A DNA stretch of 62,347 nt, counting the filler, from Dugesia japonica (lineage: Eukaryota): NCBI GenBank assembly GCA_001938525.1. It is 4 parts of 4 records of this genome, joined end to end, with 100 filler letters (N's around TTAATTAATTAA, not from the genome) between each part and the next. Parts side by side here need not be neighbours in the genome. Positions count along the whole stretch, not along the records: positions 31,348 to 44,267 come from MQRL01587037.1; 3 more parts are not named here. One strand, written 5' to 3'. Every line of letters starts with the position of its first letter. Position 1 is the stretch's first letter. The notes below the pieces were generated by a model that saw only the letters and a program-made list of their open reading frames with translations, was not told the origin of the DNA and ran no database searches. Of the stretch, positions 37,096-43,736 are shown one piece after another. The position numbers and the translations under genes were made by a program.

Positions 37096-39182
37096 AATAT
37101 TTTAATTTCCCTAAAAACTTAATTGATTTCTAAAATGAGAAATACGTACAGAACAAAGCTTACATAAACTTTTCATAATTTCGTAAATTTCATAAATATT
37201 TGATAAAATCTCATAATTTAATTTAATTGGTAATTTAAAAAGTACTCATCTGGTTATAGATTATTTATTTATAATGAATCAGTATTGATCTAATACTTCG
37301 AAGAGATTATTTACATTAACAAAATTTAGATAATTATGAATCACATCACAATGATTTCAACTAAAAATGTAATTTATTAATGTCAACTTGATCTTATAAT
37401 TTCATCATTGATGGTTACATAACCATAAGTAAACTTATTGAAATACTTAATGATATTATCAATGATTTTCCAACATGAAAATGCATTAGATCTATAATAT
37501 TTAAAGAACTAAATTTTAATCATAAATATTTTGATAATTATTCACCAATCAATAAACGTATGTAATAATAGTAGAAACATCAATAAATAAAATTTCATCC
37601 AATTTAAACCAGTCATTTTTCGTTTATTGGTATTTTTAAAAAATAATTTTAATTAGGTGTAGATTATTTCAACACTTCTATGAAAAATTATTTGTGATAC
37701 ACGCCAAACCTGGATTCTTTTGGATTTCATTATGAAATAAATATATTGTTACAAATTTCATGAATCATCAAAACATTTTATAGAATTTCAATTATAAACA
37801 TGGAATGGATTGCAATGCGAAACTCTTTGGAGTCTATTAGATCCAATAATTATATTTTGTAAAATTCATATAAATTTGTTTTTTAAAACTAAATAGCCTC
37901 ATTCAAATGTGAGGATTTTTTGTTATATATTTACATATTTAGATGGATCAAAACGTCATCATTAGACAAAATTTAAAATATGATAAAATCAATCTATATT
38001 AAAAAATATATTCAAACAATTACAATGAATATAAGATAGCTATATTAATCACACGACAATAATCACGGTAAAAATCGTTAGAATTCTAAGTATAATTTTG
38101 AAATAGAATTTTCAAATCAATAGAGTTAAATTAATTTTAATTTATTATACTAAATAATTTATTATATCACCATTATGAGATATGACTAAGAATTGTATTA
38201 TACTTACATATTAACCTTTGAAGGAGTAAATTGACATGTATTTGACAATAGGTGAATGCGTGATAGAATGCATGAGAGTATGTATAAATTGAATTGCTCA
38301 AACATTGTTACATAACCGATTACTGAAAAGCTATTACAACGAAAAAACTCAATTTTTTTAAAACTTTTATTTGTAATACATGTTTTTGACAAATCTATGT
38401 CCATCATCAGTAACTGTTGTAAAATAAGAAGGAAATTGTTTATATACTGACCAATAAAACCTGTTACGTAAACAATTCAATAAAATAAGATTAAAATAAA
38501 TTTAAAAGTGAATGTATGTCAATCTGGGTATTAAGAATCTGATTATGCAACACAATTCTCAAAGCCTCACTCTCAATTCTTTCAAAATGTTACCAAAACC
38601 ACTTCCAGTTATTTAAGTAACAAATCTACCACACCAAAAGCTTTTCTCGCTAACCTAAATTAAAAAGGCAAAATAAGCATTGATTAGTTTACAGTTTTGA
38701 ACAGCAGTTTTGGTAGTTTTTAAAAAAATGCGTTTTTTCGTTTTATTTAGATCAGAGTAATTTGTTACAGTGTCATTTATTTTTGAATAAAAACATTTTT
38801 AATTTTATTCTTAACTCTATTTCCAAAGCAAACATGTCTACTACGCTAATCCTCGTTATCATTATTGTCACTATTACNCTTANAATTAGTATTTTTACTT
38901 CAGACAATTTTTCTACTAATATCTTTTATTAAATAATACTGTTGGGGTTCCACCTGAGCTGAGCGAAAATTAACATGGCTGGGGAAAAACAGTCGATTCC
39001 TCAGGGGAACCCTTTCAAGAATTTACCCTACCACCCCTAGGATAGGTATTCAGTTCATGGTGGTTGACCTTACTCTTAACGGGAAGTACACGCCCATAAA
39101 CCTTTGATTCGGGTTCAATCGTTTCCCTTATTTACATAAGAATTTAAACCAATGCTTCTGAGAACATTTATTATAATAACAT

Positions 39183-39565
39183 TTATAGATCGTTTAGCAC
39201 GCTAGGGTCTAGCCATTGATCCGGGTCGTCTATGGTAAAATTGAAGGCGGCGATATCGTCGTCATCGGTCCAATGAATCCAAGCTGGATTCCCAATTTGT
39301 CGGGAAAGGTCAGAGATGTATTGTTTTAAGAAGTCTATTTTTTTCAACAGTAATTCCCTGTTCTCTGCCTCTAGGGCCTTGGTTTGGATTGCCTAGTCGT
39401 TTTGATTACGGACTTCCAAATCCAATTTTTTTATAAGCTGATTTCTCTGGTCAACGTGCTTAAGAAGATCTTGTTCTGATTTGCGTTTCAAGTGTCGCTC
39501 TAATAATAGACGGCGCATGATACGGTGGCACCTCCTCAAGCTAGTAGGAAACACAATGCGGGTCA
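39183..39565 (-). pseudogene. Cargo gene D: basic + coiled-coil + acidic/aromatic tail
   Basis: RRCHRIMRRLLLERHLKRK..KALEAENRELLLKKIDFLKQYISDL..WIHWTDDDDIAAFNFTIDDPDQWLDPSVLNDL*. One internal stop, upstream TTTAG acceptor, downstream AATAAA. Confidence 0.55.
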
Positions 39566-39684
39566 CTAAAGAAATAGTATAATTAACTTAGAGAATAATT
39601 AATCTACAACAAAAAAAAATAAGGGACAAAAGAATTCTACACAGTTAAATGATTTATTAATTCAAATAATAATACAAGATCAAG

Positions 39685-40041
39685 TTAGGTGCGGCTCGTC
39701 TGAGTACTTTTGTCGGCCATTAGTAGCTCGAGGGGGATTTTCTCTCGGAGCAGCAAAATATCGTTAACCAGTTTATTTTCTTGGTCATCGCTGGACCGGA
39801 TAATCTCTGAAAAAGATTCCACTTGTTTTTTCCAAGTGCGCTCTTGTGAATGTGAGGCCTCTGCTTCCCTTTTAAAGAGAACACATTTTTTTATAGCGGA
39901 GGACTTTACTATTCGCGGTGGCCACGTCCGCTTCCCAACATCGTTTGGCGAGTCGGTAAAGGTCCCACGTCATTTCGAGGTCCTCACTAGTGTCTCGGAT
40001 TTTCTTGGTTGGAGCTGGGGGTCGATTTAACGAAGAATGTA
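39685..40041 (-). pseudogene. Cargo gene C: small helical protein
   Basis: LNRPPAPTKKIRDTSEDLEMTWDLYRLAKRCWEAD..(frameshift)..KLVNDILLLREKIPLELLMADKSTQT*. Upstream acceptor and downstream AATAAA. Confidence 0.5.
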
Positions 40042-40688: not shown

Positions 40689-40802
40689 ATCTAGTAATAA
40701 CAAGGAAAACATTAAACTCACGTAACACAATACCAAGTGTAGTAAATAATTTATTTACATCGTCGATATACAACAACAGAACTTAGATAAAAAAAACTGA
40801 AA

Positions 40803-40985
40803 TCAATCCTCGTCTAGATCCACTTTCCCTTCGGGCGGAAACATTCCCGTGAGACAACCAAGGTCTGTCTCGTCGGGGTGTTCAATTTTTCCTTTCGTCA
40901 ATAGATGGGCGACGAGTTGTTTTAATCGAGTAGATTGCCGTCATCGTCTTATCCATCGGAGGATACGATTCAACTCGGCCGACAT
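40803..40985 (-). pseudogene. Cargo gene A: ~60-aa protein
   Basis: MSAELNRILRWIRR*RQSTRLKQLVAHLLTKGKIEHPDETDLGCLTGMFPPEGKVDLDED*. Confidence 0.4.
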
Positions 40986-43736
40986 AACTAAATAGAAAAA
41001 ATGGAGCTTTAAATCATAACCCCGGGGTTTATTTTCTAAAATAGATATGTAACGTTTTACTGGAAATCGTTGTTAGTAAAATAACACGCTATTTATTTTT
41101 CTAACAATGTTAATAGTAATTGTAGGAGCATTGCGAGTCATATTGATGCTACCCATCATGTAACTGGTAATGATAACATTAGAAGTTGATGATCGCTTTA
41201 CTTCGGGATTTACTGATATTTAAAATGATATTTTTCCTCAGTACGAATTATTTTCCCGGAGCCCCAAGATGGGTGCTTCTAAAAATAATATCGAAAATTT
41301 TAATAACACTGGTAGTGATAATATTAGAATTACTCAAAATAATAATCATTTTATTTATAATAAAATTAAATATTCTCCGGTTTTATGGAGTTTAATTTTC
41401 TGCGCGTTGTGGTTACTTAGGAACCTGCCTGTATGTATCCCATTATGGCGATTTTCATTAAATTATGTGTGTGTGCCAGGTCATCTAGTTGTAGGTGTGT
41501 TTAGTTGAGAGATAGTTGGAAATAACAGCATAAAAGCAATATCACGATTCACTATTAGTAATAATAAATATCGCGCTCTTATATTAACTACAATTCATGA
41601 TTCTAGGGTGACAGTTTTATTTTCTGGAGAAATTATGATAATTAATTTTACCCTGGGTAGAATTATCAAATCGTTATGTGGATTTTAACCAATATAAGCA
41701 TAAGTCGCTTCCTCACTGACATTCCTGGAATTACCGACAAGCGGAATTACTCTAGGTAATTTATCATTTTCTGATGAAATAAATATTTGGAATTATAGTA
41801 GTTTTATTTTTAATTCTAATAATTTTTTTGATTTATATATTTGTTAACTGTATGATCACAAGCTAAGGATAACAAACTGATCTAACTTTCGTTTGAAATA
41901 TGAATCTTCGTAATCTTACTCAAAGGGAATCGGGCCTGATCACGCTATTGTCCAGTATATAACTTATTTAATATAATGAGGGATTAAAAAGGACAAATAT
42001 CTCCATTTTTAAATAGTGCATCAGATTACCATGTAAAAATCATTTTTATGCTAAATTTTCACTACGATAATTATTTTCAGAGATAAATTAATAGTTAAGA
42101 AATAAATTTTATTCGTTATCTAAATTTATTAAAATAGAGTATGTTCAACCTTTCATAGATTAACATTTAACATAAAATAATATTTTACTTTTTTAGTCAA
42201 ATTAAAAGGTTTTCTGCAACGGGTTTCTTTCCTTTGAAAAGCTAATATCGAGTTGGCAATTCCGGATCTGAGGCTGAGATTTGGAATTCTATTATATTTT
42301 ATTCTATAATTCTTCGGAATTCTGATTGAGTTGTATGGTTCGCACAGAGGTTTTTACAGAGTTTTCTTCTTATGAATATGCAACAGTCAGTGCTTAATTG
42401 GTAGTTTTAAATTTTTGTGTTGTTTTTTCTGCTAAAACTGAGGGTCCTTTTAAAGGATTTTCCGATGCAACTCGGCATCATTCTTATTGGGAGGTATTTT
42501 TGTTTCAAAATACCGGTATCTTATTGGCGCTAGCGCCACAATTCCAGAATTTTCAGAGTTTTAGAGCTCTGATTGGTAAGTATTTTTAGACGGCCATGTG
42601 ATGGTATTTTCTTTGTTTTATTTTTATTTTTAGGCCTTCAATTGGTTCAATTTTGTGGACCCTGCAGCAGCCTTCTGGATGAGGGTAAGTTTTCCCTTCT
42701 TAGCAATTTTACTGCATCTTGTTGTTCTCTTTTCATATTTTCTTCTCCGGGTTCTTTCTGATTTCCTTGAGCGAAGTTATTCGAGTAAAACGGATTTTGT
42801 CTTAATTTTAATTAATTTTTTGTTGAATCAATTATTAATTTCTTTATATTCATTCCTTCTTTTGCTACCCATTTTCTTTAATAATTTTATTAATTTTTTG
42901 GATTATTATAATTAATCGTATTTGATTTGGTCTTCTGAGTTTCCATTTATTATCATTGTCTGGATTTTTCTTCTTGTAATCTCTATTTTAATATTGGGTC
43001 ATTCCTGGCCCCTTTCGATTTTGCTTCTCATTCCTCCGGGTGTTTCGCCCCAACAATACTATATTAAAGTTTTTATTCCATTTTCAGGAATTAATTTTTG
43101 ATAAGTAATGGCGATCGAAACTGTCCCGATCCCGATTATCGATATGTCCACTAGCGACACCAATTTTCGCTAATAGGTTGTTCTTAGTGAATTGTACTGT
43201 CAACCTATCTTCATATAACTACATATGAAATAAACTATACCGCGGAAATAAACTCAATTCGAATTATTAACTTAGACCAGCCCAGCAGTGATTCCGTACT
43301 AATCATCTTCCAGCATACACTTTCATAATCTCTTTACTTTCTGTGAATCAAAATCCGACTCCAACCCCAGTTTGAAGATTTTATAAACTGGACGATGAAA
43401 CAAAAAGCGACAGACCAATAACGCACCACTTGAGCGAATGTATCAGTATATTACTGGAGTTTGCAAATATGGCTCCAATTTTTCAAGAGACCATGGATGG
43501 AGGCCCACGATAGAGAACGTTCTAGCCACTGGCACTCAAGTTATGTAAGGTTTACTGAACCACCCAATCTACCAGGCTTGGTACACTGAGACTGTAGAAG
43601 GTGCTCCATGAGCGGAGCATTTTAACCATTGAATTAGACTCTGTGACCTAAATTAGTGTTTACTCTGTGTAAAATAAAGAACTAATTGAATTGGTTATTT
43701 TTTTCAGTCTTCCAGTTTCTTTTATCGTAACATAGA

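Follow-up and report, generated by a model that had tools for sequence, protein, structure and literature searches.

A decayed array of small, apparently spliced genes in a 4-kb insertion of Dugesia japonica: possibly a giant Gypsy-like solo long terminal repeat

When a segment of DNA has the termini of an integrase-inserted element and carries several small genes and no recognizable enzyme of transposition, an obvious question arises: what kind of element is it? This question is posed by positions 38940-43055 of a 62,347-nt stretch of Dugesia japonica DNA (hereafter, the window) that consists of four joined parts, with the element and its right flank both located inside one of these, MQRL01587037.1 (31,348-44,267). 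The original prediction viewed the segment as an insertion spreading orphan genes and offered two options for its nature, an integrase-mobilised cargo element or a giant gene-bearing long terminal repeat (LTR). The analysis described here supports an integrase-mobilised insertion with once-selected, apparently spliced orphan genes, whereas neither membership in Ginger nor functional genes in this copy hold up. Of the two options, a giant LTR with genes carried in antisense fits best, and it appears somewhat probable that a giant Gypsy-like retroelement of Burro or Ogre size left the segment behind as a solo LTR (or a collapsed pair of LTRs), plus-oriented and with an antisense gene array in its U3 region. 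In any case, the segment is a genuine mobile element with an unusual cargo architecture, to which no parent element has been linked. A probable gene G, a plus-strand spliced leader and a related array in the right flank are additions to the first account.

The element starts with TGTTGGGG (38940-38947, plus strand) and ends with CCCCAACA (43048-43055, plus strand), and the target-site duplication ATAC stands on both sides of it (38936-38939 and 43056-43059), so that the 8-bp inverted ends and the duplication are seen just as claimed. By itself, this pattern proves little because it is frequent by chance: 8-bp inverted repeats that start with TGT and are flanked by a 4-bp duplication occur three times in the window against a simulated mean of 6.3 (30 simulations). 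When at least 5 of the 8 positions are required to be G or C, the window has one such pair where 200 simulations give 0.025 on average; moreover, the GC content jumps from 0.16 to 0.48 at the left end and falls from 0.54 to 0.18 at the right end (50 bp). Given the rarity of such GC-rich ends in simulations and the abrupt compositional change at both ends, we take 38940-43055 to be a true insertion, with AATACT as the empty target site. The window around it is mostly 16-31% GC and rich in repeats, including mariner, zinc-finger LINE-like (long interspersed nuclear element), Maverick-like and Gypsy remnants. The perfect inverted repeat is limited to 8 bp, the ungapped end-to-end inverted identity dropping to 0.55 at 20 bp, 0.40 at 40 bp and 0.32 at 100 bp, and the longest direct match between the arms of the element is 10 bp. 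At the assembly gap of 50 N (40135-40184), two contigs overlap, as shown by a perfect 53-bp duplicate on its two sides (40082-40134 is identical to 40185-40237); hence, the true length of the element is about 4013 bp. Two candidate further copies were discarded, namely, a 79% match to 13778-13828, which is AT-rich low complexity, and an occurrence of TGTTGGGG at 18106 that has no partner end.

The minus strand of the element is a mosaic of GC-richer blocks (0.42-0.52) and T-rich spacers (0.27-0.32), and four genes, denoted A to D in the order of their putative transcription, can be read on it. Gene A (40803-40985) comprises 60 codons with an internal stop at codon 15, and gene B (40341-40688) has up to 115 codons, with internal stops at codons 6, 60 and 91 and an AATAAA at 40311. 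Gene C (39685-39973) consists of about 95 codons, its frame possibly starting as far upstream as 40041, with a single frameshift near 39875-39890 and an AATAAA at 39658. Gene D (39183-39518), of about 111 codons, has one internal stop, at codon 42, and an AATAAA at 39172; it combines a coiled-coil-like N-terminal half, for which only sub-threshold coiled-coil matches were found in Pfam, with an acidic, W/D-rich C end. Pooled, A-D contain 5 internal stops in 360 codons where 18.4 are expected (P=0.0025 for the best of six frames). Taken singly, the depletion is significant for D (P=0.009) and for the second half of C (P=0.036) and not for A (0.15), B (0.30) or the first half of C (0.17); three-base periodicity is significant only in some windows over D and G. 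Judged by this pooled depletion of stops and by the homologs of A and B described below, A-D are real coding sequences. Thus, the claim of at least four co-oriented minus-strand genes stands with respect to coding but not with respect to open reading frames, all four being broken in this copy. Five stops correspond, by a rough estimate, to about 10% neutral substitution, and A-D accordingly read as dead genes that have decayed jointly to roughly this extent. An alternative genetic code in which TAG or TGA is read through was rejected since C is also frameshifted, more than one kind of stop is involved, and the TGA that terminates A coincides with the end of its homolog. The genes of the array are unrelated to one another.

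Do these genes have relatives elsewhere? A HMMER scan of 1.84 billion representative proteins with the frame that contains A, B and D as the query (E<=0.001) yielded two proteins, P0001 for A and P0002 for B. The former, 60 aa long, is 48% identical to A across 60 residues without a gap (E=2.5e-7), and the latter, of 94 aa, is 38% identical to B over 92 residues (E=1e-6); each pair starts at the same methionine. Both are intact, unnamed singletons, each known from a single short contig, of 1041 and 512 nt, respectively. Profile searches retrieved only P0001 for A, among 2 candidates, and only P0002 for B, among 21, and an Atlas search with both proteins brought nothing further. For D, no homolog was detected among the 5 candidates of the word-indexed set or in the full HMMER scan; for C, no family was found in Pfam or PHROGs, the large protein sets not having been searched with its frames. 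Pfam, PHROGs and the PDB sequences gave nothing for A, B, the pieces of C, D, G, the flanking paralog B' or the flank frames; BFVD gave no match, and Rfam and tRNA scans added nothing further. Such blank searches show neither novelty nor absence of the cargo families. With respect to structure, A could be modelled as a small protein of three short helices (pLDDT, the predicted local distance difference test score, 72), whereas fold searches with this model, of the kind that had been proposed for the cargo, produced no match (best Z 3.8, best E 2.0), and the model of G, with a pLDDT of 47, is unusable. For a resemblance of A to J-domain proteins, suggested by its HPD motif, no support was found, with no DnaJ match in Pfam or the PDB sequences and no J-domain among the fold matches listed. 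Elsewhere in the window, small, gene-like and partly broken stretches with acceptors or short introns and AATAAA are present on the plus strand at 14370-14720, 21400-21850 and 53250-53750; they show no protein similarity to A-D. Around 21870-21898, the poly(A) context is similar to the one found at gene D, with 90% over 29 nt.

Upstream of A, a probable fifth gene, G, of about 250 codons may be read on the minus strand at 41073-41843, heavily decayed and uncertain as to its start, exons and strand. It shows 10 stops in 256 codons against 20.4 expected (best-of-six P=0.04) and a host-like, TTA-rich leucine usage. Weighing against it, the plus-strand frame 41224-41844 is more open (207 codons, 4 stops), and a gene as old as A-D should have acquired 2-3 stops rather than 10.

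The genes appear to be embedded in a regular set of expression signals. Splice acceptors, which had been predicted upstream of most genes, were sought with a strict scan over the entire minus strand; it gave 5 matches, all 5 in the spacers before A, B, C and D. The recurring unit consists of an AATAAA, an unpaired acceptor, a mini-exon of 16-40 nt, an intron of 47-73 nt and a coding exon; a scan for this module found it at A and C (2 against 0.058 expected, P=0.002) and also at B'. Before A, the predicted 73-nt GT-AG intron (40988-41060) ends 2 nt before the ATG. The module before B (40691-40800) has its acceptor directly after the stop of A, followed by a 38-nt mini-exon and a 68-nt GT-AG intron (40758-40691) whose donor overlaps the AATAAA at 40755; the one before C (40042-40115) has its acceptor at 40115, a 16-nt mini-exon and a 57-nt GT-AG intron (40098-40042); and the one before D (39541-39604) has an acceptor at 39604, a 16-nt mini-exon and a 47-nt intron-like segment with the weak donor GTTAAT. 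Three of the 10 minus-strand intron candidates of the whole window precede A, B and C. Further upstream, the predicted introns 41919-41863 (57 nt) and 41848-41771 (78 nt), separated by a 14-nt exon, possibly form a common leader of the minus-strand array (41771-41919). An AATAAA does follow each gene, as claimed, and yet this is weak as evidence, given that there are 17 on the minus strand and 5 in the array against 1.9 expected. The spacers measure 87, 114, about 264 (corrected for the gap) and 166 nt. Imperfect palindromes are present inside the element at 41057-41119, the G-A junction, and at 42033-42188, in the candidate R region.

The right arm of the element carries its signals on the plus strand. 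A candidate R region (42033-42106) with a 48-nt candidate intron (42033-42080) and an AATAAA (42101-42106) is followed by a T-rich, U5- or leader-like arm (42140-43047) with an AT skew of -0.18 to -0.40, the minus strand of which is without coding signal. Within this arm, a splice set is predicted at 42576-42690, namely, a 58-nt GTAAGT..TAG intron (42576-42633), a 51-nt exon and a second GTAAGT donor at 42685. The two plus-strand GGTAAGT words of the window are both in the right arm (42575 and 42684; P about 0.0007), and 42715-43055 contains no YAG, against 5.6 in shuffles (P=0.003); with no YAG in the last 340 nt, the acceptor for the 42685 donor would lie outside the element. Plus-strand AATAAA signals number 4 in 41000-42200 (3.0 expected) and 0 in 38940-41000 (1.84 expected), where the minus strand has 5; the absence is not significant alone. 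Because the AT-rich zone at 41920-42032 is situated between the outermost introns of the two strands (41919 on the minus and 42033 on the plus strand) and has TATA-like words on both strands, we infer a bidirectional promoter there. A frame of about 75 codons without stops, though with no evident start, runs through the plus-strand exons predicted in 42398-42684; the first exon has no family match. The string KGPSV (42450-42436), earlier taken for a GPY-like integrase remnant, had to be abandoned as such: no Pfam family was hit at E<=1 in any of 9 read-through frames of 40986-43055, and GP[YFWS] appears 5 times by chance in the six-frame translation. Likewise rejected was a decayed minus-strand transposase or pol gene in 42156-43055, where the six frames gave a best-of-six P of at least 0.22 and no family.

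Evidence that the array was under selection comes from outside the element. The flank at 43060-44267 holds a second, diverged array in the opposite (plus) orientation, with an acceptor at 43087, an AATAAA at 43673, a paralog of B, denoted B', and a C-like splice module at about 44133-44250. B' (43737-43986), about 700 bp beyond the right end of the element, begins with an ATG at 43737 followed by a 61-nt phase-1 intron (43741-43801) that is in frame with a B-like exon, and its acceptor precedes a conserved Trp codon by 14 nt, the same as in B. The homolog of B in the protein set matches 43816-43926 of the plus strand (tblastn, 55% over 38 aa, E=1e-7). Over 28 codons, B and B' differ at 7, 6 and 19 sites of the three codon positions, with proportions of synonymous and nonsynonymous differences of 0.80 (pS) and 0.24 (pN) (P=5e-6); the two genes are saturated at synonymous sites, and the purifying selection that had been proposed as a check on the cargo is thus found within the window itself. 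Similarity at the DNA level spans the donor, the mini-exon and both acceptors, with a local score of 67 against a maximum of 43 in 300 simulations, the aligned splice sites suggesting that splicing, too, has been conserved. The alignment of the C-like module with C is not significant (P=0.24), and in the place of A the flank has other frames (about 43109-43650, with AATAAA at 43229, 43247 and 43673) that belong to no PHROGs family. The second array stops at the gap after 44267, and its ends were not found. Probably, then, the element sits inside an older, oppositely oriented relative, and such nesting implies a multicopy family with variable gene content, B being kept and A replaced. On the other side, a hydrophobic open frame of 71 codons (38717-38932, plus strand; periodicity P=0.01) ends 4 nt before the left duplication; its part at 38774-38932 compares with the end of G at P=0.04 for DNA and P=0.63 for protein and could represent the terminal part of a G-like gene belonging to the outer array.

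How could these pieces work together? Under the LTR reading, a central AT-rich promoter near 41920-42030 would fire both ways. Rightward, it would produce the genomic RNA, with a short R (AATAAA at 42101), a T-rich U5 and an intron-bearing leader, the donor at 42685 splicing to an acceptor in the lost internal region. Leftward, an antisense transcript would run through G-A-B-C-D in a U3 of about 3 kb and would be cut into separate mRNAs by the per-gene poly(A) signals together with the unpaired acceptors, the transcripts being resolved either through spliced-leader trans-splicing or through alternative cis-splicing that starts from one shared leader, with 41919 as its candidate donor. Since the genes would be antisense to the packaged RNA, their introns would be kept and their poly(A) signals would not truncate the genome. 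Recombination between two LTRs would then have left this copy, with some 10% decay since. Most likely, the products are small accessory proteins that served the element, as suggested by selection while it was mobile and decay after insertion; that they act as adaptors in host interaction or anti-silencing is a guess.

Comparison with known elements fits this scheme in part. As in solo LTRs of Ty3/Gypsy elements (Metaviridae), the inverted TG..CA ends and the duplication are short, a candidate poly(A) signal precedes a T-rich tract in what may be a U3-R-U5 order, and there is no coding core; remnants of Gypsy reverse transcriptase/RNase H are located in the same window. Target-site duplications of Gypsy elements are 4-6 bp long, and ATAC, with 4 bp, fits. 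Both termini agree with the LTR integrase-site consensus TGTTRNR...YNYAACA, conserved over about 7 bp (PMC3601003), the left as TGTTGGG and the right as CCCAACA. In contrast to the animal-clade solo LTRs of 170-700 bp modelled in PMC3601003, the element is about 4 kb long and holds 4-5 apparently spliced protein genes. Multi-kb LTRs, accessory open reading frames (ORFs), an AT-rich, repeat-rich host and copies decayed by stops and frameshifts are shared with Burro/GYPSM1 of planarians and Ogre of plants; the LTRs of Ogre measure 1.9-6.5 kb, and Burro elements are longer than 30 kb, of which the interior takes up to 25 kb (PMC6431247). However, the extra ORFs of Burro and Ogre are placed in the internal region, none being reported inside an LTR in the portion of PMC6431247 consulted. 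The closest precedent for a gene in an LTR is the sag gene of mouse mammary tumour virus (MMTV)-like elements, which resides in U3, is under purifying selection in the active element and is mostly encountered in solo LTRs (490 of 527 contigs; PMC4667437). It is, however, one sense gene of a vertebrate retrovirus, as opposed to 4-5 intron-bearing, presumably antisense genes here. The spacing of the array, 87-264 nt with a poly(A) signal close before the next acceptor, is reminiscent of the spliced-leader operons of flatworms and nematodes, for which same-strand genes within 300 bp are the flatworm criterion (PMC12582326); unlike these, the array is inside a mobile element, and a common cis-spliced leader would fit equally well. 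Titles and beginnings of abstracts yielded no description of a spliced multi-gene array inside an LTR, most subscription papers and Repbase being outside the scope of this survey, and the passages of PMC8532177 and PMC11410931 consulted offer nothing on LTR anatomy. Such LTR sequences may already be present in Repbase or in supplementary data on Burro.

Several observations weigh against the solo LTR. A search of the window revealed no second copy of the termini and no full-length copy, second LTR, primer-binding site, polypurine tract or linked gag-pol. Introns in R/U5 require unspliced RNA as the template, and further plus-strand AATAAA signals are found at 41359, 41563 and 41778, that is, in the proposed U3. 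The link to Burro is an analogy. The splice and promoter calls are predictions, with thresholds chosen once the sites were known; of the 4 modules, the scan detected 2, and those of B and D were read by eye; and the 28-codon core of B and B' was picked by protein similarity, a bias that inflates the excess of synonymous over nonsynonymous change.

The main competitor, unlikely though deserving consideration, is a non-autonomous or internally deleted DNA transposon with a Gypsy-type integrase, Ginger-like or of an undescribed group with short terminal inverted repeats (TIRs), in which the plus-strand leader would be the stump of a transposase gene. Ginger elements have TGTNR ends, 4-bp duplications, lengths of 2.6-7 kb and intron-containing transposases; they include non-autonomous copies and insert into CCGG/CCGT or RTATAY (PMC2836005). 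TGTNR is present here, as TGTTG at both ends; movement at the DNA level would account for introns on both strands without special pleading, and the stop-free frame of about 75 codons in the plus-strand exons could be a trace of the transposase. On the other hand, the TIRs of Ginger1 are 40-270 bp long and those of Ginger2/Tdd about 45-300 bp, as compared to 8 bp here, with 0.40 identity at 40 bp; the duplication ATAC is not CCGG or CCGT, and the empty site AATACT, a single case, resembles the AT-rich preference of Ginger2/Tdd in being AT-rich and 4 bp without being RTATAY. No frame searched in Pfam matched an integrase or transposase, including the GPY/F integrase of Ginger1 in 9 of 9 frames, which a non-autonomous copy could lack, and a Ginger with a cargo array was not encountered among titles and beginnings of abstracts. 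As two defining features fail, TIR length and target site, the element is not filed under Ginger.

The remaining possibilities are less probable still. A solo LTR in the minus orientation, with the genes expressed in sense as spliced subgenomic mRNAs like retroviral accessory genes, would suit the symmetric ends, the sense orientation of MMTV sag in U3 (PMC4667437) and the position of the last AATAAA (39172), about 230 bp from the left end as with a short U5; we consider it improbable, given that five AATAAA would truncate the genomic RNA, at least 3 sense introns would be spliced out, and the plus-strand GTAAGT donors and the YAG-free arm would be left unexplained. Marginally less credible is the absence of a boundary at 43055, such that the right-flank array would be the continuation of a larger element (e.g., the start of its internal region) behind the same plus-strand leader: the donor at 42685 could find its partner in the good acceptor 32 bp beyond the end (43087), and under random insertion the nearby paralog of B would be a coincidence, yet the perfect 8-bp inverted end, the 4-bp duplication and the GC step all fall exactly at 43055, no primer-binding site (such as TGG) follows the duplication, and synonymous saturation between B and B' fits distant subfamilies. 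There is little to recommend derivation from an endogenous DNA virus, or from a Polinton-like element, that used a retroviral-type integrase, the segment being a fragment in which the small spliced genes would be viral accessory genes. Maverick-like ATPase and integrase remnants do exist in the window, and small genes packed into compact arrays would be at home in DNA viruses; on the other side, Polintons/Mavericks have long TIRs, 6-bp duplications and genes for PolB, ATPase and capsid, whereas the element has 8-bp ends, a 4-bp duplication, no capsid, polymerase or ATPase gene inside it, and no PHROGs or BFVD match. Least probable of all are recently captured host genes or a host tandem cluster with chance ends: TGT inverted repeats with duplications do arise by chance in the window, but such a cluster would not predict GC-rich ends that coincide with GC steps, spacers as short as 87-264 nt, or mutually unrelated genes of no known family that have all decayed together.

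The window contains a variety of other features. Left of the element, a pair of 53-nt imperfect inverted repeats (38313-38767) is probably a remnant of a small DNA transposon. Decayed Gypsy pol remnants on the plus strand (54900-57550, 17046-17400 and 31936-32900) show no link to the element ends; the first of these ends in a purine tract and then TGT near 57543, a candidate start of an ordinary 3' LTR. Maverick/Polinton-like remnants (23196-26480 and 30213-30814) match an A32-type ATPase and the rve integrase. Zinc-finger LINE-like pieces (1400-5566, plus strand) directly upstream of a degenerate 28S rRNA fragment (4968-5566) possibly represent a LINE targeting ribosomal DNA. Diverged coiled-coil-like frames at 33158-33403 (plus) and 50378-50133 (minus) are mutually similar (27% over 82 aa); a three-copy hairpin family resembling miniature inverted-repeat transposable elements occupies 6600-6790, 15820-16200 and 36840-37070; and a minisatellite with 16/33/49-bp units extends over 60130-60670. 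The segments of 44 N, TTAATTAATTAA and 44 N at 17418-17517, 31248-31347 and 44268-44367 are a joining or assembly artefact.

Taken together, the two diverged arrays within 62 kb suggest a multicopy family. Tentatively, this would be a family of giant, provirus-like Gypsy elements with LTRs organized as multi-gene units, in each of which a single bidirectional promoter would direct synthesis of the genomic RNA on one side and, on the other, of an operon-like antisense array of 4-5 intron-bearing accessory genes, with alternative splicing or spliced-leader trans-splicing resolving it; gene content would vary between subfamilies, and each solo LTR would deposit a complete, self-promoted orphan cassette in the genome. 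As a rule, LTRs do not code for proteins, and the exceptions, such as MMTV sag (PMC4667437), involve single genes. This copy of the element is dead, so that its value is in the family rather than in the locus. If the scheme is true, a multi-gene spliced LTR would show how retroelements can carry intron-containing genes and why the LTRs of some invertebrates reach several kb; orphan genes and transcripts that annotation finds restricted to a lineage would have in it a direct source.

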